64,000 nucleotides of DNA from Bacteroidaceae bacterium (lineage in GTDB: Bacteria; Bacillota_I; Bacilli_A; RFN20; CAG-826), in assembly GCA_963624045.1 (NCBI GenBank), contig CAVFNI010000007.1:21935-85934 (forward strand), in the 5' to 3' direction. The translations under genes and the position numbers were made by a program. Shown here in pieces: positions 41,509 through 48,800 of the stretch. The notes under the pieces were generated by a model. The model ran no database searches. It had not been told where the DNA came from and worked only from the letters and a program-made list of their open reading frames with translations. Numbering within the stretch: position 1 is the first letter of the stretch; each line of letters begins with the position of its first letter.

Positions 41509-42123
41509 ATGAACAATTCCAATTTACCTTTTTCCGATGAATCGGATGAAAGCCTTTTGATGTTAGCGAGACGGGGAAACGTCTCTGCTCACCTCGCCCT
41601 CACCAAACGTTATTTTGACCGAAAGCACATTTTGGCCAAACAAGCGTCGGCGCCTTTGGCGTCGCTTTTCGATAGTTGGGACATCAACCATATTTTCTTT
41701 ACGACCTTTCTTCACGCCTCTGATCGGTATGAGTTGGGTCAAATGGCCAAATTCTCGACTTATTTCCTCACCTGCTTCCGCCATGAATTGTTGGCCGAAG
41801 CCAAAGCGAATAAGATTTTCGAAAGGGGAATGGTCCTTTCGTTAGATGCGGAATGCTCTTCCGATTATTCGGAAGGCAGTTTCGCTCTATCTGACGTGAT
41901 TGCCGCTCCCGACGAGGATCCGATGCGCTATGTCGATTTCTTTGACGAATGCCTTGAAAACGGCAACGAAGAATACCAAATCGACCCTCAAGCGGTGGAT
42001 GTGGCTAGGCTCAAGATCTATGGCTATAGCTTCCGAGCGATAGCTAGGCTTATGAATCAAAGCGTGCGCCGTTGCAAGAATCTTTATCTCCTGTTCCTAG
42101 GGATGGTGAAGCGTTTGCTATAA
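41509..42123 (+). CDS. Divergent sigma-70-family sigma factor in the sigH position
   Basis: Region-2-like sequence SLLMLARRGNVSAHLALTKRY...FSTYFLTCFRHELL and a region-4 HTH YSFRAIARLMNQSVRRCKN. Synteny is cysS-rlmB-[sigH]-rpmG-secE-nusG. Confidence 0.55.
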   Translation: MNNSNLPFSDESDESLLMLARRGNVSAHLALTKRYFDRKHILAKQASAPLASLFDSWDINHIFFTTFLHASDRYELGQMAKFSTYFLTCFRHELLAEAKANKIFERGMVLSLDAECSSDYSEGSFALSDVIAAPDEDPMRYVDFFDECLENGNEEYQIDPQAVDVARLKIYGYSFRAIARLMNQSVRRCKNLYLLFLGMVKRLL

Positions 42124-42148: not shown

Positions 42149-42174
42149 GGCGGGCCATTACGGCCCGCTTTTAA
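42149..42174 (+). terminator. Rho-independent terminator after the sigma-factor gene
   Basis: Stem GCGGGCC, loop ATTAC, stem GGCCCGC, followed by TTTTAATGTTTT. Confidence 0.75.
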
Positions 42175-42181
42175 TGTTTTC

Positions 42182-42961
42182 GTGAGCAAATGGAACGCGT
42201 CGTCTTATGCTACAATAGAAGCAGCTAAAGAAATTGATTGGCGGTGGTTATACATGTCTTTGAAATTAGACGATCTTGAAACATTCAAAAAACATAGAAA
42301 CGAGATTTCTGAGTCTTTGATAAATAAATTTGTAGGTAGAGAAAAAGACATTGATAATATTTGTGATTTGTTGGTGCGGAATGATTTCATTGCCATAACC
42401 GGACCTGCCGGAATTGGTAAAAGCAGGTTAGCAGTGGCGACTATAGAAAAGTATTCTTTGGAAAATAAAAAAATCAGTGTTTTATGCGTCAAAAGTTTTG
42501 GTGACTACATATCTGCCATTGAGGAATCTATAGAAGACTCAAAGCAATATCTTTTGCTGATAGATGATGCTAGCAATCTCAAAAGATTTGACGAAGTGAT
42601 TAAAAGATTCGAAGAAGCCAATCAAATGACGCTCATCGAAAGTTTGTATTCATTGTTTTTGGAGAAGAAGTGGACAGTTAAAGAATTCACGCAAGAGACA
42701 GCGTTAACGAAAGACCTTTTCAGCAAAATAAAGAACAAGCAAAGGAAAAGCCTCGAAAAGAAGACTCTCATCCAAATCCTGATTGGGCTTAGGCTTCCTA
42801 AGGATCAGCGAGATTATCTAATAGAGAAAAATCAAACTCAGCTTTCAAAATACGACTTAGAAGATGTCCTTTATGATTTCATGCTCGCATCGGGAGTTGG
42901 TATTGACGACGCTGATGCATTGCTTAAAGAATTGGGAAAAGAGGGTTTTATAAAAAAATAA
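42182..42961 (+). CDS. Chimeric ORF: truncated STAND/AAA-type P-loop N-terminus joined in frame to an XRE-like HTH C-terminus
   Basis: FVGREKDIDNICDLL...ITGPAGIGKSRLA (Walker A) and YLLLIDDA (Walker B) are followed after ~20 aa by WTVKEFTQETALTKDLFSKIKNKQRKSLEKKTLIQILIGLRL (HTH-like). The annotated start is a GTG without an SD; the ATG at 42254 (GGTGG upstream) is an alternative. Confidence 0.45.
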   Translation: MSKWNASSYATIEAAKEIDWRWLYMSLKLDDLETFKKHRNEISESLINKFVGREKDIDNICDLLVRNDFIAITGPAGIGKSRLAVATIEKYSLENKKISVLCVKSFGDYISAIEESIEDSKQYLLLIDDASNLKRFDEVIKRFEEANQMTLIESLYSLFLEKKWTVKEFTQETALTKDLFSKIKNKQRKSLEKKTLIQILIGLRLPKDQRDYLIEKNQTQLSKYDLEDVLYDFMLASGVGIDDADALLKELGKEGFIKK

Positions 42962-42971
42962 TACGGTAAAA

Positions 42972-42988
42972 ATATTTTCTAAAAATAC
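42972..42988. promoter_or_regulatory. 17-bp near-palindrome ATATTTTCTAAAAATAC (candidate operator, copy 1)
   Basis: It shares 15 of 17 positions with 43048-43064 and has the dyad TATTTT-N-AAAATA. Confidence 0.4.
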
Positions 42989-43047
42989 AAAACAATCATA
43001 TAAGAGGATAATTTCATGAAAAACTGCTTAAAAAGTCCATAAAAGCT

Positions 43048-43064
43048 GTATTTTCGAAAAATAC
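43048..43064. promoter_or_regulatory. 17-bp palindrome GTATTTTCGAAAAATAC (candidate operator, copy 2)
   Basis: Arms GTATTTT/AAAATAC. It lies ~20 bp upstream of a TATAAT hexamer (43085-43090) and ~80 bp upstream of the cassette start. Confidence 0.4.
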
Positions 43065-43143
43065 GGGCATTTTTAAACCTCAAATATAATGGAGCCAGAA
43101 CGAGTTAGACACGTTCGAAATTCATTAATAGGAGGTTATAAGA

Positions 43144-43800
43144 ATGTCTAAAAATATCATTGATGACGGTTACTCATCATACCTGGTTGATGGTGCTACC
43201 TTTGTAGGCAAGTACCAGATTCCATCCATTCCAAAACATGATGTGATTCGCATCCCCAAGGATATGGTCCCATTTGATAAGAGAAACGTCGTGAAGGAAA
43301 GAAATCTAGCGATAGATTTCTACATGCATGATGTGACTTTCAGACAAATACTCACATCGACAAGCAAATATCTTGATGAACTATCAAGGTTTGCGGCGGT
43401 GATTTCGCCGGATTGCTCACTCTACAGGGATATGCCGTTATGCTTGCAGATAACCAACACCTATATGAGTAGGGCTGTTGGCTTCTATCTTCAAAGACGC
43501 GGCGTATATGTGATTCCGAATGTTCGGTGGGGAGACGAAAGGAGCTTCGAATTCTGCTTCCAAGGACTTCCTACAAACGACATCGTATGCGTCAGCACGC
43601 ATGGATGCATCAAAGGCGAGGAAAACAAGTATTATTTCAAACTTGGACTTGAAGAAATGCTTAACGTCTTGAAACCACAGGTCGTGCTCGTTCACGGGCC
43701 AATGCCGGTTGAGGTGTTCTCTGATTTTCCAAGCAAGACGAAGCTTGTCCATTACAAGAGCTATATCTCCAAAATGAAGGGAGGTAGGCGTAATGGGTAG
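43144..43800 (+). CDS. DUF4417-like protein (function unknown)
   Basis: The 218-aa ORF has an AGGAGG SD. DFYMHDVTFRQIL...AVISPDCSLYRDMPLCLQITNTYMSRAVGFYLQRRGVYVIPNVRWGDERSFEFCF resembles my memory of the DUF4417 core (...SPDFSLY.DMP...Q..N.YR.R....W...G..VIP.V.W.D..S..FCF). Confidence 0.45.
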   Translation: MSKNIIDDGYSSYLVDGATFVGKYQIPSIPKHDVIRIPKDMVPFDKRNVVKERNLAIDFYMHDVTFRQILTSTSKYLDELSRFAAVISPDCSLYRDMPLCLQITNTYMSRAVGFYLQRRGVYVIPNVRWGDERSFEFCFQGLPTNDIVCVSTHGCIKGEENKYYFKLGLEEMLNVLKPQVVLVHGPMPVEVFSDFPSKTKLVHYKSYISKMKGGRRNG

Positions 43801-44326
43801 TGGAATCTCCGGAAACTACACTGGCGTAAGGCCGAATGAAGAATCTCAACCATACGCAATCGCTTATCGTGTTACGGACGATTTGCTCGAGCGAGATAAG
43901 CAGAATCCGGATATCTATGATTCAATTAGCGGATATTTCAAAAACCCTACAACAACCAATCTCAGCGAAGCGATTATTGGTGATGGAGTTTATATGGGCG
44001 AAAGGCGCATGCATGGCAAATTTCCATACGTCTTGACGGAAGACGGTAAAATATTATTTGGTAAGAGATCTAATCCTAATAATTCATCTAAAAGAGCTCC
44101 ACATCCAACCTTAATAGGTGGAAAAAATCCAAAAGTCAAATGTGCTGGCATGATTACATTCTCTAAGGGAAAGGTCGTTTCAGTAAATAATGATAGCGGC
44201 CATTTCAAACCAAATGTGAAATCCATGAAATACGTTAATGGCTTCATGAATAAACTATATGAACACCACCTACCGTCTTTAGCAACATGTCAAAATGGAG
44301 GAAGAATAAATGACAACGATCAATGA
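43793..44326 (+). CDS. Hypothetical 177-aa protein, toxin-like
   Basis: GGGAGG SD, and the start overlaps the upstream stop (ATGGGTAG). There is no signal peptide or TM segment. The conserved-looking block HPTLIGGKNPKVKCAGMITFSKGKVVSVNNDSGHFKP recalls C-terminal toxin modules of polymorphic toxins. This is a recollection, not a verified hit. Confidence 0.35.
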   Translation: MGSGISGNYTGVRPNEESQPYAIAYRVTDDLLERDKQNPDIYDSISGYFKNPTTTNLSEAIIGDGVYMGERRMHGKFPYVLTEDGKILFGKRSNPNNSSKRAPHPTLIGGKNPKVKCAGMITFSKGKVVSVNNDSGHFKPNVKSMKYVNGFMNKLYEHHLPSLATCQNGGRINDNDQ

Positions 44327-44771
44327 AATAACAAAAAAACTATTTAGTGTCAATTTTGAAAAGGATTTAGATGACGGCGAAGTATCTAATGCTTATGAAA
44401 GCATGGCTGAGGAATTGATAAAAAACAACAAGTGGTCTGATGTTTATGCTTCTTGGTTTTACTATCTTGTCAACAATTGCAAGACAGAAGAAGAAGTTCT
44501 AAATTTTGCTAATCTCTTTTGGTTCTACGAAGGCTATAAACATTTCATTCCAAACGCAGTGGAGTTTTGTGCTTTTTTCTATGCCAATATATCATTTGAC
44601 AATTATCCTGATGCCGCAGAAATATTAGATAGCATTACTTGTGAAGTATTTTTGAATTCCGGAATATATCCAAGCGCATCTCTTCGTTACGACGAATATA
44701 TTCCGGCGAACGATCCTAAGATAAAAAAAGCCATCTACAAATGGAAGGAGAAAGGTTATGGATTGTGTTAA
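44310..44771 (+). CDS. Hypothetical 153-aa acidic, aromatic-rich protein, immunity/antitoxin-like
   Basis: GGAGGAAG SD, and a 17-nt overlap with the upstream ORF. The composition looks helical, and I recognise no motifs. Confidence 0.35.
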   Translation: MTTINEITKKLFSVNFEKDLDDGEVSNAYESMAEELIKNNKWSDVYASWFYYLVNNCKTEEEVLNFANLFWFYEGYKHFIPNAVEFCAFFYANISFDNYPDAAEILDSITCEVFLNSGIYPSASLRYDEYIPANDPKIKKAIYKWKEKGYGLC

Positions 44772-45303
44772 ATTATCGAAAGAAGTTTCATATGCATTAA
44801 GGCACGCGCCATGGGAATACGAGCTTGAACTCGATGAGAACGGATTCGTTCCGGTAGAGCAATTGCTACATTCCCTGAATTCGTTAAATAAATATGGCAG
44901 AGATGTTACGAAGGAAGATCTTGAATACATTATTGCTAATTCCGACAAGAAGAGGCACGAAATCGTTGGAGACAAAATCAGAGCCTTATACGGCCATTCA
45001 GTCCCAAATAAAATTGAAAAAGTGCCTTCAATTCCGCCTGATGTCCTATATCATGGGACAGCCAAAAGATTCCTCGATTCCATAATGAAGGATGGCTTGC
45101 TTCCCATGAAGAGACAATACGTTCATCTTAGCGTTGATATGGATACGGCAACGGTGGTCGGGAAGAGAAGAGATGGCGACCCCATAATTCTTGAGATTGA
45201 TGCCAAGGCTGCATCTGACGATGGAATCGCGTTCTATATTGGAAACGACAAGGTGTGGATGTGTGACAAGTTGCCGGCGAAATACATTAAAATTCCTAAA
45301 TGA
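44758..45303 (+). CDS. kptA: RNA 2'-phosphotransferase, KptA/Tpt1 family
   Basis: LSKEVSYALRHAPWEYELELDENGFVPVEQLL, IRALYGHS, VLYHGT and RQYVHLS are Tpt1 hallmarks, including the Arg/His catalytic positions. Length is 181 aa. It overlaps the upstream ORF by 14 nt. Confidence 0.85.
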   Translation: MDCVKLSKEVSYALRHAPWEYELELDENGFVPVEQLLHSLNSLNKYGRDVTKEDLEYIIANSDKKRHEIVGDKIRALYGHSVPNKIEKVPSIPPDVLYHGTAKRFLDSIMKDGLLPMKRQYVHLSVDMDTATVVGKRRDGDPIILEIDAKAASDDGIAFYIGNDKVWMCDKLPAKYIKIPK

Positions 45304-45357: not shown

Positions 45358-45386
45358 TTGACAGGTCGCTATCGCGGTCCTATTAT
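45358..45386 (+). promoter_or_regulatory. Sigma-A-type promoter of rpmG-secE-nusG
   Basis: TTGACA (45358-45363), a 17-bp spacer, then TATTAT (45381-45386). Confidence 0.7.
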
Positions 45387-46462: not shown

Positions 46463-46482
46463 ATATGAAAGGACATTCATAT
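46463..46482. promoter_or_regulatory. ArsR/SmtB-type operator, copy 2 (ATATGAA-N6-TTCATAT)
   Basis: The arms are identical to copy 1. It covers the SD (AAAGGA) and ends 1 nt before the ATG at 46483. It lies 63 bp from copy 1. Confidence 0.6.
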
Positions 46483-46785
46483 ATGAGCACATTACCAGTC
46501 GATAAAACGTTAGAAAAGATGGAGGAGCTTCTAAACGTCGCTAGTGATTTCACTAGACTCAAAATCCTCTATTCCATTAACGGCGAAGAGAAGAACGTCA
46601 GCGAAATCATGGAAGAAGTGGGGGCTTCGCAATCTTTGATATCCCACCAACTTAAAGTGCTTCGTAAAAACCATTTGGTCCAAACGCGGAAAGATGGCCA
46701 TAAAGTCTATTATCGTTTGGCCGATGAACACGTCAGCAAATTGCTAGAAGTTGTTCATGACCACGTTTTGGAAGAGGGGGAATAA
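46483..46785 (+). CDS. ArsR/SmtB-family metal-responsive transcriptional repressor
   Basis: ASDFTRLKILYSINGEEKNVSEIMEEVGASQSLISHQLKVLRKNHLVQTRKDGHKVYYRL is a winged HTH. The track start at 46465 is also possible. Confidence 0.85.
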   Translation: MSTLPVDKTLEKMEELLNVASDFTRLKILYSINGEEKNVSEIMEEVGASQSLISHQLKVLRKNHLVQTRKDGHKVYYRLADEHVSKLLEVVHDHVLEEGE

Positions 46786-46787
46786 AG

Positions 46788-48800
46788 ATGGGATGCTCAC
46801 ATTGCCATTGCCATGCGCATGAAAATAAAGGAATCGAAAAGGAACACGAGAAAATCGAAAAGGAGGATAAAAAACACGTTGTTATAACGATTATTCGGCT
46901 GTCTATAAGTTTGACGTTTGCATTGCTTGGGTTGCTTTTGTTTAAGGAGGAATGGGGCGATGCCCACCTTGGAGAAGGCGCCGGCCTTTGGCTTAATTTC
47001 GCCATCATGTTAGCGGCATGGATTATAGCTGGATATGACATCGTTATCGAAGGCATTAAAAGTTTCGTCGAAGAGAAGAACCCCTTCGATGAGAACGTCT
47101 TGATGTTCATCGCCAGCGTAGGTGCCTTCTGTCTCCGTTTCTTCGGGTCAAACGAATTCTTTGAAGCGGTCATGATCGTTCTTCTCTACCAAGTGGGCGA
47201 GATGTTTGAAGATTTTGCTTCGGAACGTTCGCACAAAGCTATCTCGGAAGCGGTGGGATTGCGCGCCAAAACCGCCAATTTACTGGTTGATGGAACGCTT
47301 AAGACGATCGATCCGAAAGAATTAGAAATTGGTGATAAAATCCTAGTTAAAGTAGGCGAAATCGTTCCGGCCGATGGGGTGGTGATCGAAGGAGAGGGAT
47401 CTTTTGATTGTTCCAGTCTTACTGGTGAATTTGTCCCTGTGCATAAGGGGTGTGGCAATTCCGTTAATAGCGGTACCATCCTCAAAAATGGATCGGTCAC
47501 TATTGCCGTGAGTAAATCATACGAGGAGAGCACGGTCAGCCACATCATCAAATTGGTCGAGGAATCGGAAAGCAATAAATCGAAAGCGGATAAATTCATC
47601 ACCAAATTCGCTAAGATTTACACTCCGATTGTGGTCGGGATCGCCGTTTTGTTGGCTATCATACCCCCGATTTGCATAGATATTTCGAATTTTTCCGTTT
47701 GGTCGCATTGGCTATATACCGCCATTTGTTTATTGGTTATCTCTTGTCCGTGCGCCGTCGTTGTTAGCGTGCCTCTCTCTTATTTCGCCGGCATCGGATT
47801 AGCTTCTAAGCACGGCATTTTGGTTAAAGGCGCTTCTTATTTCGATAAATTAAACGAACTAGGGTTAGTGGTGACCGATAAAACGGGGACCATCACTGAA
47901 GGTCGCTTCAGCGTTACGAAATTATCCCCGATCGATATCGATGAAAACGAATTCTGTAAATGCCTCTTCTTGGCGGAAAGCCGTAGCAACCACCCAATCG
48001 CTAAGGCAATTATTTCCGACTTAGGAACAAAAGAAGAGCAAGAGAAAATTGACTCCTATAAGGAAATCGCCGGATATGGCGTGGAAGTGACATCCGACAA
48101 TCACATCATTTTAGCTGGAAACGCTAAATTGATGAAAGAAAGGGGGATTGCCTTCGAGGAGAGCGATGATATTGGAACGGTCGTTTATTTGGCTAAGGAC
48201 GATAAATTTTGTGGTTATATTGTTCTAAACGATGTTGCCAAAAAGGAAAGCGCTCCGACTTTAGCCGCCCTGAAAAAGGGAGGAATCGGCACTTTGATGT
48301 TAACCGGCGATAAAGAAGAAAGCGCCGCCATGATGGCTAAAGCGATTGGCCTCGACGATTATCGAAGCGAGCTTTTGCCTAATGAAAAAACAGAGATTTT
48401 GAAAGAAAAAATTGCTTCTTCATCCAAGGCGGTCGCCTATGTTGGCGATGGCATTAACGACGCGCCGTCGATTGCTTTGGCCGATGTCGGCATCGCCATG
48501 GGCGGTGGTGGCAGCGATATGGCTATCGAAAACGCCGATGTGGTCATTATGAATGACGATTTCTCTAAAATCATCACGGCCATTGCTATCGCCAAAAAAA
48601 CTAGAAACAGGGCCGTTATCGATGTGGCCGTCGCTCTCTTTGTCAAAGTCACCATCGCCATTTTGGCCATTATCATGCCTTATATCGCTAACGGCACAGA
48701 ATTACCGATGTTCATCGCCGTGCTCGCTGACACAGGGTTGACCGCTTTGCTCATTATCTTTTCGGTTTCTTTGCTGTATTCAAAGAAAATCAAAGAATAG
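46788..48800 (+). CDS. Heavy-metal-translocating P1B-type ATPase (Cd/Zn/Co-type) with a His/Cys-rich N-terminus and no HMA domain
   Basis: N-terminus MGCSHCHCHAHE, the CPC motif (LVISCPCAVVVS), DKTGTIT, GDGINDAP and TGD. Confidence 0.9.
   Translation: MGCSHCHCHAHENKGIEKEHEKIEKEDKKHVVITIIRLSISLTFALLGLLLFKEEWGDAHLGEGAGLWLNFAIMLAAWIIAGYDIVIEGIKSFVEEKNPFDENVLMFIASVGAFCLRFFGSNEFFEAVMIVLLYQVGEMFEDFASERSHKAISEAVGLRAKTANLLVDGTLKTIDPKELEIGDKILVKVGEIVPADGVVIEGEGSFDCSSLTGEFVPVHKGCGNSVNSGTILKNGSVTIAVSKSYEESTVSHIIKLVEESESNKSKADKFITKFAKIYTPIVVGIAVLLAIIPPICIDISNFSVWSHWLYTAICLLVISCPCAVVVSVPLSYFAGIGLASKHGILVKGASYFDKLNELGLVVTDKTGTITEGRFSVTKLSPIDIDENEFCKCLFLAESRSNHPIAKAIISDLGTKEEQEKIDSYKEIAGYGVEVTSDNHIILAGNAKLMKERGIAFEESDDIGTVVYLAKDDKFCGYIVLNDVAKKESAPTLAALKKGGIGTLMLTGDKEESAAMMAKAIGLDDYRSELLPNEKTEILKEKIASSSKAVAYVGDGINDAPSIALADVGIAMGGGGSDMAIENADVVIMNDDFSKIITAIAIAKKTRNRAVIDVAVALFVKVTIAILAIIMPYIANGTELPMFIAVLADTGLTALLIIFSVSLLYSKKIKE

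Follow-up and report, generated by a model that had tools for sequence, protein, structure and literature searches.

A DUF4417-linked island at a sigH-rpmG junction is probably a polymorphic toxin-immunity cassette with Tpt1 as a frequent accessory

A 64-kb stretch of contig CAVFNI010000007.1 of assembly GCA_963624045.1 (the window, to the whole of which all positions refer) carries an AT-rich island at 42182-45303, between a sigH-position gene and rpmG-secE-nusG. We propose that the island is a conflict cassette of the polymorphic toxin-immunity kind and, with the roles assigned to its proteins included, we consider this reading probable. Its core is a triad of genes for a DUF4417 protein, a 177-amino-acid (aa) putative toxin (p177) and a 153-aa putative immunity protein (p153), which is joined by Tpt1/KptA, an NAD+-dependent RNA 2'-phosphotransferase, as an accessory. 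The five plus-strand open reading frames (ORFs) that an earlier, sequence-only reading had placed in the island are all present as it had mapped them. The last four overlap at their stops and starts by 8, 17 and 14 nt and have Shine-Dalgarno sequences, again as that reading had described.

Results

A conserved DUF4417-p177-p153 triad

A census of p177 was made with one genome per GTDB species, giving 138 species; 79 loci were analysed and their ORFs were classed by iterative searches. The p177-type triad is intact, translationally coupled and 40-90% identical in the 138 species-level genomes. The 79 loci come from at least nine phyla, spread over Bacillota, Actinomycetota (Bifidobacterium, Senegalimassilia), Bacteroidales, Spirochaetes, Fibrobacter, Synergistetes, Proteobacteria, Planctomycetes, Lentisphaerae and Anaerolineae, and wherever a habitat is named it is gut or rumen. 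A DUF4417 gene adjoins p177 in 75 of the 79 loci, a p153 homologue directly follows it in 67, and the three families occur together in 67-75; Tpt1 lies within a few kb in 32. The triad is the conserved core, to which Tpt1 is often added in step with the toxin domain. The sequence-only reading had proposed a neighbourhood search for co-occurrence of its four genes, and this comparison finds them together well outside the present genome. Its statement that no described defence or toxin-antitoxin system has this gene set also held: there is no model in PADLOC for the four cassette proteins (PADLOC-DB 2.0 gave no match for DUF4417, p177, p153, DUF6960 or Tpt1), and a literature search found no paper that describes the set or a three-part DUF4417-toxin-immunity system. 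Neither profile nor structure comparison yielded a housekeeping assignment.

p177 is a putative polymorphic toxin

The p177 protein (43793..44326, plus strand) has a glycine-rich N-terminal tag (about aa 1-20) and a predicted toxin domain (about aa 20-160), and its C-terminal 18 aa are frameshifted in this copy. All 149 close relatives are about 170 aa long. A search of 1.84 billion representative proteins with the p177 profile gave 1391 matches, and in many large proteins of 700-7535 aa profile positions ~20-166 were found at the extreme C-terminus. Pfam identifies P0314 and P0405 as DUF6531 plus RHS-repeat proteins and P0321 as VgrG-like, which places the p177 domain C-terminally behind different N-terminal trafficking regions, as expected of a polymorphic toxin. 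The toxin reading follows from this fusion to Rhs and VgrG-like proteins together with the immunity genes downstream: p177 appears to behave as a polymorphic-toxin domain with two alternative immunity families, and the earlier label 'toxin-like' gains support from the fusions.

Neither p177 nor p153 matched a family in Pfam, NCBIfam, PHROGs or PADLOC. Alignment of the p177 family revealed invariant MGS.., PHPTLIGG and SGH..P motifs together with invariant Arg, Ser, Asp and Tyr residues, which would be compatible with a metal-independent phosphotransfer enzyme. The AlphaFold2 (AF2) model is confident (pLDDT 83, core >90). Foldseek found no match for it in the PDB (best E 0.3) and in BFVD only three unnamed, weak matches (TM 0.33-0.40), and the p177 profile retrieved nothing from PDB sequences at E <= 10. 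The order of secondary-structure elements is compatible with a barnase/BECR-like topology. A 2H phosphoesterase, considered from the 'HPTL' motif, was dropped, as both the second HxT/S motif and a fold match are absent.

Only four remote p177 relatives were found among the 2.9 million viral contigs of IMG/VR. One viral contig (L094, 9014-10495) encodes a protein of 493 aa whose N-terminus resembles a signal peptide and in which the core H..L..AG...G.I..I.N.SGHY.P occurs twice, and a 324-kb viral contig (L096, 9887-10737) carries two tandem small ORFs that are remote relatives of the toxin core; none of these has a Pfam match.

p153 and DUF6960 are alternative immunity candidates

Position and conservation mark the acidic p153 (44310..44771, plus strand) as the probable cognate immunity partner of p177, which it would neutralise by binding. 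Its place directly behind p177 in 67 of the 79 loci agrees with the earlier description 'immunity-like'. Three p153 proteins compared across genera share 31-33% identity (E 3e-16 to 1e-30). Tandem extra copies are present in five loci (L040, L043, L071, L085 and L086), and toxin-immunity pairs are duplicated in several. DUF6960 (PF22283) stands in place of p153 in seven DUF4417 loci and in all six Rhs/VgrG-type loci; where a different third gene stands in the DUF4417 loci, its 127-aa product is a DUF6960 homologue (E 1e-10). The locus therefore has the small downstream immunity gene of a polymorphic toxin system, with arrays and alternative families. No sequence relative of p153 or DUF6960 was found in the PDB, and in the literature search the name DUF6960 appeared in no paper.

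DUF4417 is the constant partner of a tagged polymorphic toxin set

What had been read as a DUF4417-like protein (43144..43800, plus strand; 218 aa) matches PF14386 over its full length (E 3e-53; 180.4 bits against a gathering cut-off of 28.9; profile positions 3-182 of 183). The name DUF4417 was found in four papers, none of which assigns it a function. The family alignment contains 25 invariant residues, including D, R, W and C155, with H62 nearly invariant; from these residues DUF4417 looks like an enzyme and, more speculatively, might be a Cys/His/Asp hydrolase. Its AF2 model (pLDDT 88.7) gave weak TIM-barrel-like Foldseek matches to PdxJ and EAL domains (TM 0.44), and the profile found only a 27-residue chance match in the PDB.

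The tag of p177 (roughly the first 20 residues, MGSGxSGxYxGTxGxSQ) is absent from the Rhs/VgrG versions. It turns up again on unrelated proteins whose genes come straight after other DUF4417 genes, with the consensus M-G-[GST]..G.[YF]..T[KR]GS. Behind the tag lie an EndoU_bacteria domain in L109 (MGSGESGRYY...; E 3e-15), Tox-REase-3 in L115 (MGGCAGGGGFGGTKGS...; E 4e-17) and a PBECR1-like domain in L107 (MGRYKSSGLGVGT...), and the L021 protein (MGTSKSGRHLNTRGS...) resembles the EndoU-type protein of L109 by eye. Toxin domains of no known family follow in L117 (MGGSTNGNFGRTKGS...) and L108 (MSTKGPSNRYGNTKGS...), and behind a related tagged N-terminus in L113 and L127. After each tagged gene comes a small, often acidic, immunity-like ORF. 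A constant DUF4417 and tag are thus set ahead of EndoU_bacteria, Tox-REase-3, PBECR1-like, ART and unknown domains, as in a polymorphic toxin system. DUF4417 is the constant partner of a tagged polymorphic toxin set, and the island cassette is one member of this wider DUF4417-linked class.

Phages carry such cassettes as well. In the viral contigs L115 and L117 the cassette comes after the portal gene, and DUF4417 is encoded in 492 deposited phage genomes (385 of Mycobacterium, 57 of Streptococcus). Mycobacteriophages have the cassette as genes 1-3, beside the genome end: in Mycobacterium phage First (L125, NC_020876) gp1 is DUF4417, gp2 is annotated 'ADP-ribosyltransferase exoenzyme toxin' and gp3 is small. 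In Streptococcus phages ParB-DUF4417 fusions are located just ahead of the terminase genes. The position of the phage cassettes in head or packaging modules suggests virion delivery of the toxin. As a separate observation, the gp2 frame of phage First (1240-2184) opens at ATG 1240 with MGKRGGSGGGGG and a long Gly-rich linker and overlaps the end of gp1; the annotated start at 1591 probably lies too far into the gene.

Tpt1 follows the toxin domain

The final gene of the island (44758..45303, plus strand) is translationally coupled to the immunity gene and encodes Tpt1/KptA, as the sequence-only reading had recognised (PF01885, E 2e-42; 145.8 bits against a Pfam gathering cut-off of 26; profile positions 4-176 of 177). 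The score for the NCBIfam equivalog NF002013 stays below its cut-off (190.6 against 231 bits); the protein is nonetheless a member of the family. Its closest solved homologue is Clostridium thermocellum Tpt1 (6E3A; E 3e-64, 60% identity over the aligned region), with which the motifs ALRHAP, IRALYGHS and RQYVHLS align identically. We take these three motifs to hold the catalytic Arg-His-Arg-Arg tetrad of Tpt1. The C. thermocellum enzyme uses NAD+ and removes internal 2'-phosphates as well as terminal 2'- and 3'-phosphates from RNA, and the role of Tpt1 in taxa lacking a fungal-type ligase 'remains obscure' (PMC6573784). Among the proteins of the cassette, Tpt1 alone suggests the 'NAD+/RNA-centred' chemistry that the sequence-only reading had put forward.

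Tpt1 is encoded directly downstream on the same strand in 18 of its 32 loci, upstream and divergently in 11, and convergently in three; the divergent copies usually share an operon with genes for an XRE regulator and an M78 peptidase. In all six evaluable DUF4417 loci with DUF6960, Tpt1 comes directly after it. The same order is found behind an Rhs toxin in a type VII secretion system (T7SS)-type context (L119) and, with an overlapping start, behind a VgrG-like toxin (L122), neither of which has DUF4417; Tpt1 accompanies these two of the six Rhs/VgrG-type toxin loci. It is absent from about ten distinct loci in which DUF4417 is paired with other toxins. Tpt1 is tied to the toxin domain and not to DUF4417. 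Two strains that lack toxin and immunity genes (L099 and L101) still keep Tpt1, which is therefore not harmful alone. The literature search found no paper linking Tpt1/KptA to toxin immunity or to the repair of damage done by a toxin.

The island is a horizontally acquired, strain-variable insertion

The GC content of the island is 0.387 against a window mean of 0.476 (standard deviation 0.034 for 3.1-kb windows), which makes it the lowest-GC 3.1-kb stretch of the whole 64 kb and bears out by windowed calculation the AT-richness noted earlier. The flanking genes, which had been put at 50-60%, measure 0.46-0.49. Most of the drop is due to ORF1, a 182-nt spacer, p177 and p153 (0.29-0.39); the DUF4417 gene (0.44) and the Tpt1 gene (0.42) are nearer the flanks and only mildly AT-rich. 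The spacer (42962..43143, plus strand; GC 0.286) ends in an AGGAGG Shine-Dalgarno sequence and is the presumed promoter/operator region of the four coupled genes; a promoter scan found no strong sigma-70 match in it.

On the left the island is bounded by the intrinsic terminator of the sigH-position gene (42149..42177, plus strand; a stem of eight pairs, seven of them G-C, and a T-run) and on the right by the rpmG-secE-nusG promoter (45358..45386, plus strand; TTGACA-17-TATTAT, 11/12 matches). Both had been proposed from the letters and both were recovered by scans, the terminator at 42149-42169. The terminator is kept in same-species contigs. Neither att-like direct repeats nor terminal inverted repeats were found flanking the island, and no integrase adjoins it in the window.

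An empty site is present in the relative L106, whose sigH-position protein is 65% identical: cysS-rlmB-sigH, an equivalent terminator and about 200 nt lead to the same promoter and rpmG-secE-nusG, the rpmG start included, with no insert. Exactly the same sigH-rpmG junction holds a different, minus-strand cassette in L107 (8600-10885) and L108 (2760-6311). The genes of that cassette code for a helix-turn-helix (HTH) regulator of the XRE type, an M78 peptidase of the ImmA/IrrE type, a distantly related DUF4417 protein, a tagged protein of 127 aa and a zinc-ribbon protein of 173 aa that has four CxxC pairs. In this lineage DUF4417 cassettes seem to have landed at the junction repeatedly.

Strains of the window species were recognised by an identical SecE (same-species assembly GCA_963614415.1). 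Four of them (L098, L100, L104 and L105) carry toxin, immunity and Tpt1 genes at the same site; those of their contigs that extend far enough stop within the final part of the DUF4417 gene. In L099 and L101 the triad is lost: sigH is followed by ORF1 fragments, an IS1595-family DDE transposase that replaces DUF4417-toxin-immunity (L101 811-2490; L099 271-1317), and Tpt1. The same-species contigs that carry sigH all break inside ORF1, and the IS1595-family insertion probably explains these breaks. Among the loci found with the p177 profile only L001 (92% identity) is at this junction and the others lie in unrelated contexts; the remaining same-site copies are the four window-species strains above, which were fetched by exact SecE. 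The empty site in L106, the variable contexts and the low GC content establish the island as a horizontally acquired insertion that varies between strains, in keeping with the origin suggested by the sequence-only reading, which had proposed this comparison of the junction.

A further rearrangement was seen on a Mobilibacterium-like contig (L008 5513-7295), where, by comparison with L006 and L007, the toxin gene, the immunity gene and the 3' part of the DUF4417 gene lie in a segment inverted against its surroundings, and a 53-aa DUF4417 fragment remains on the other side. This may be either a real inversion or a misassembly.

ORF1 is a STAND NTPase remnant, and this copy may be decaying

ORF1 (42254..42961, plus strand) more likely starts at ATG 42254, in line with the gene call in L012, than at GTG 42182 as first read. 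It is the internally deleted remnant of an nSTAND3-like STAND nucleoside triphosphatase (NTPase) of about 1230 aa. Its aa 25-141 correspond to aa 1-117 of a 1234-aa protein in L017 (81% identity) and its aa 139-259 to aa 1112-1232 of the same protein (79%); comparison with the L068 homologue gave the same deletion pattern. Relative to both homologues about 995 aa are missing in frame, fusing a Walker-A N-terminus to a C-terminal capH-like HTH region. Library matches are to nSTAND3 in Pfam (E 6e-8) and, weakly, to capH in PADLOC (E 3e-3). ORF1 covers positions 6-97 of the 155 in the nSTAND3 profile and is not a complete STAND NTPase module. The L017 homologue lies directly upstream of DUF4417, and a full-length STAND gene has this place in eight of the 79 loci, including the closest relatives. 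The full-length protein is an nSTAND3-type P-loop NTPase whose C-terminal region is long and unassigned and ends in an HTH like that of capH; it has no PADLOC family, matching only the mad8 P-loop weakly.

The toxin gene has also changed. A 1-nt deletion in a C-run near 44271 shifts the last 18 codons, converting the conserved ...PTVFSNMSKWRKNK to ...LPSLATCQNGGRINDNDQ. The allele is shared with L104 and is not found in L001 or L105, whose toxins end ...SKWRKNK and overlap the immunity gene by 4 nt; the 17-nt overlap is peculiar to the frameshifted allele. All invariant residues of the toxin core are present in the window copy. Because the STAND deletion and the frameshifted toxin tail occur together, this copy may be attenuated or decaying.

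Neighbouring genes

Among the 125 nearest neighbours of the cassettes the commonest Pfam families are Peptidase_M78 (10), HTH_3 (9), type I methylase (4) and ABC-3C components (4 each), and PADLOC recognised capP (5), HTH_VI (5), type I MTase and LmuB (3-4 each). The neighbourhood has a moderate defence-island flavour, and most loci have ordinary neighbours. A prophage origin of the chromosomal cassettes was rejected, there being no phage structural family among the 25 commonest neighbour families and just the four remote toxin relatives in IMG/VR. A Lamassu-like ABC-3C trio (DUF2326-type ABC ATPase/LmuB, MC7 and CTD11/LmuA) adjoins the cassette in about ten loci of different phyla, including L048 (4100-7065), L055 and L057 and loci of Bifidobacterium and Lachnospira, either through co-transfer or through functional coupling.

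In the window itself, the 204-aa ORF at the sigH position (41509-42123) has no Pfam sigma-70 region and only a weak HTH_38 match (E 0.03). The 'sigH' label of the sequence-only reading holds by synteny, without the expected sigma-70 match, and the product could be either a highly divergent sigma factor or a protein of another kind. Between nusG and rplK, genes for a regulator of the ArsR family and for a P-type ATPase of 670 aa (heavy-metal type) (46465-48800) split the usual nusG-rplK-rplA order; this pair is also present in L001, L106 and L108 and, unlike the island, is conserved in the 65%-identity relatives. A search of the whole window (1-64000) with Rfam at gathering thresholds returned no RNA family, and no ribosomal-protein leader near rplK/rplJ either.

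Discussion

Proposed mechanism

In our proposed mechanism p177 would be the toxin, its short Gly-rich tag being fused to a domain that is used C-terminally in Rhs and VgrG-like toxins, and p153 would neutralise it by binding. DUF4417, the constant partner of the tagged toxins, would most likely recognise the tag and process, load or activate the toxin, and the position in phage head modules would point to loading of the toxin into virions. The invariant residues of p177 and its linkage to Tpt1 are consistent with its being a metal-independent enzyme that attacks RNA and leaves a 2'- or 3'-phosphate on it. Tpt1 would then most likely repair this damage as a second-line enzymatic immunity, spending NAD+ to restore 2'-OH/3'-OH RNA, and ORF1 is the leftover of a STAND NTPase found beside the cassette in the closest relatives. 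A wider form of this proposal, which we consider less likely than not, is that bacterial Tpt1 could be a dedicated NAD+-dependent antidote to widespread RNA-damaging p177 toxins, whose new lesion chemistry would leave an RNA 2'-phosphate or a terminal phosphate, and that DUF4417 and the 16-aa tag could form a new toxin-handling route, for example virion loading.

Several observations weigh against the proposed mechanism. Tpt1 is missing from 47 of the 79 loci, 21 of which are truncated near the cassette, and from four of the six Rhs/VgrG loci, and is therefore not required. Neither the island nor the 25 commonest neighbour families include an RNA ligase, a kinase, a 2H phosphoesterase or another end-healing enzyme to accompany Tpt1, and the cassette does not have the make-up of an RNA repair operon. 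The 'RNase-like' view of p177 draws on two invariant His residues, the Arg/Ser residues and the Tpt1 linkage, in a protein whose confident model has no PDB match and whose sequence has no Pfam match. The fold matches of DUF4417 are weak and TIM-barrel-like and give no function; the gene lies downstream of the toxin-immunity pair in five loci and was not found in four. The top 25 neighbour families hold no phage structural gene, and the surroundings of the chromosomal cassettes show neither a secretion signal nor a delivery apparatus.

The lack of a delivery apparatus nearby would suit a role in anti-phage abortive infection, where a sensor frees the toxin from its immunity protein on infection and toxin and Tpt1 together damage RNA, burn NAD+ (one per phosphate removed) and halt growth. 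Candidate sensors do adjoin some cassettes: the full-length STAND NTPase of eight loci, the Lamassu-like LmuA/LmuB neighbours of about ten, and in about ten loci an XRE and Peptidase_M78 (capH/capP-like) pair, an XRE/ImmA-type switch, which is co-oriented with Tpt1 and faces the cassette; in Holdemanella a type I restriction-modification system adjoins it. Most loci, however, have no such sensor, the STAND gene is deleted in the window, and PADLOC has no model for the core proteins or the full-length STAND. The same toxin domain and DUF6960 immunity are used in classical exported Rhs/VgrG toxins, and phages themselves carry DUF4417 cassettes in their head modules. We regard abortive infection as doubtful.

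Those phage cassettes, placed after the portal in L115 and L117 and at genes 1-3 of mycobacteriophages, raise the further idea that DUF4417 loads tagged toxins into virions, as proposed for MuF-fused toxins, and that the chromosomal copy is a nonfunctional, decaying cargo module kept for the protection given by immunity and Tpt1. The deleted STAND gene and frameshifted toxin tail of the window copy would fit such decay, as would the strains that keep Tpt1 only. It is an unlikely explanation in view of the intact, coupled triad of 138 species, the scarcity of toxin relatives in viral contigs, the lack of phage structural genes among the commonest neighbours and the preservation of every invariant toxin-core residue in the window.

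Tpt1 could alternatively be an effector, making the cassette an NAD-dependent modifying module in which the 5'-phosphate ends of toxin-cut nucleic acid are ADP-ribosylated and religation is blocked. Two papers report that Tpt1 enzymes ADP-ribosylate 5'-phosphorylated RNA and DNA ends in vitro (PMC12678800, PMC11833690), and Tpt1 is co-translated with the toxin here. Yet it stands after the immunity gene, in the slot of protective genes in the Rhs/VgrG loci, is often transcribed divergently with regulators and not with the toxin, and shares 60% identity over the aligned region with an ordinary Tpt1; strains without toxin and immunity keep it, hence it is not toxic by itself. An effector role is quite unlikely. 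A last alternative is that these genes are a native part of the sigH-rpmG junction, an ancestral cluster with a housekeeping role in RNA processing; the shared strand of all genes with the flanking core operons and the conserved nature of Tpt1 could be cited for it. It is refuted by the empty site of L106 and the variable contexts, together with the deviant GC content, the presence that varies within the species and a position that, among the loci found with the p177 profile or by exact SecE, only L001 and the window-species strains share.

Relation to known systems

The polymorphic toxin-immunity kind is well known, and includes the Rhs/YD, VgrG, CdiA, LXG and other systems (Zhang et al. 2012, PMC3482391). 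The proposed cassette shares with them a toxin domain common to Rhs/VgrG-like proteins, an immunity gene immediately downstream, sometimes in tandem, and a constant element with interchangeable toxin domains (EndoU, Tox-REase-3, ART and the p177 domain). It differs in that the toxin is free-standing and about 170 aa long, the constant part is a Gly-rich tag of about 16 aa, the constant module is a separate DUF4417 gene, and the chromosomal copies have no secretion signal or system nearby. A full-text search found neither KptA nor DUF4417 in that survey.

The nearest precedents are two papers, neither of which covers DUF4417. The MuF toxins of temperate phages (Jamet et al. 2017, PMC5576092) are likewise toxin-immunity pairs in the head-morphogenesis/packaging module near portal and terminase, and the toxin is thought to be packaged and injected. 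In the present case there is no MuF domain: no MuF (PF04233-like) match was found in the cassette proteins or in a 332-aa protein upstream in L117. The toxin is encoded by the next gene and not fused to a structural protein, DUF4417 takes the post-portal slot in L115, and most p177-type copies are chromosomal and outside prophages. S8-PTS (Li, Tan & Zhang 2022, PMC9424270) has the same three-gene plan of an accessory enzyme, a polymorphic toxin with a common N-terminal part and an immunity protein; its accessory is an S8 subtilase and its toxins carry a signal peptide and BetaH, whereas DUF4417 has no recognised peptidase fold and the toxins here are predicted to be cytoplasmic.

Immunity by repair has precedents, such as the ADP-ribosylhydrolase Tri1, which acts against Tre1. 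PMC10083569 describes (p)ppApp hydrolases as immunity proteins against (p)ppApp-synthetase toxins. Tpt1 would resemble these in being an enzyme beside a toxin-immunity pair that could reverse a lesion without binding the toxin, and in being kept alone in some strains; that the toxin makes a Tpt1 substrate is, in our case, what we infer. KptA/Tpt1 otherwise acts in fungal and plant tRNA healing-and-sealing and in phage RNA repair (PMC9503650; PMC6573784). A canonical Tpt1 is common to both settings, as would be RNA cut by a metal-independent RNase that leaves a phosphate needing removal, but the ligase, polynucleotide kinase and 2H cyclic phosphodiesterase of that pathway are absent here and Tpt1 is coupled to the putative damaging enzyme and its immunity gene. 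As for STAND (Avs-like) and Lamassu/ABC-3C systems, an nSTAND3-type NTPase of about 1230 aa or a Lamassu-like trio adjoins a minority of loci; most loci have neither, and no effector is fused to the STAND protein.

Judged by the libraries searched, three elements are new: the DUF4417 and tag architecture, the toxin domain with its two immunity families and the recurrent recruitment of Tpt1. The p177 domain can be read as a toxin for which p153 and DUF6960 would be the immunity proteins. DUF4417, which is present in hundreds of phages and is gene 1 of many mycobacteriophages, gains a context, its fixed pairing with tagged toxins and immunity genes, which suggests that phages have a general mechanism for handling toxins. 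Bacteria without the one pathway known to require Tpt1 conserve the enzyme, and the toxin domain brings it along in three unrelated genomic architectures; RNA treated with the toxin would offer a handle on its natural substrate.

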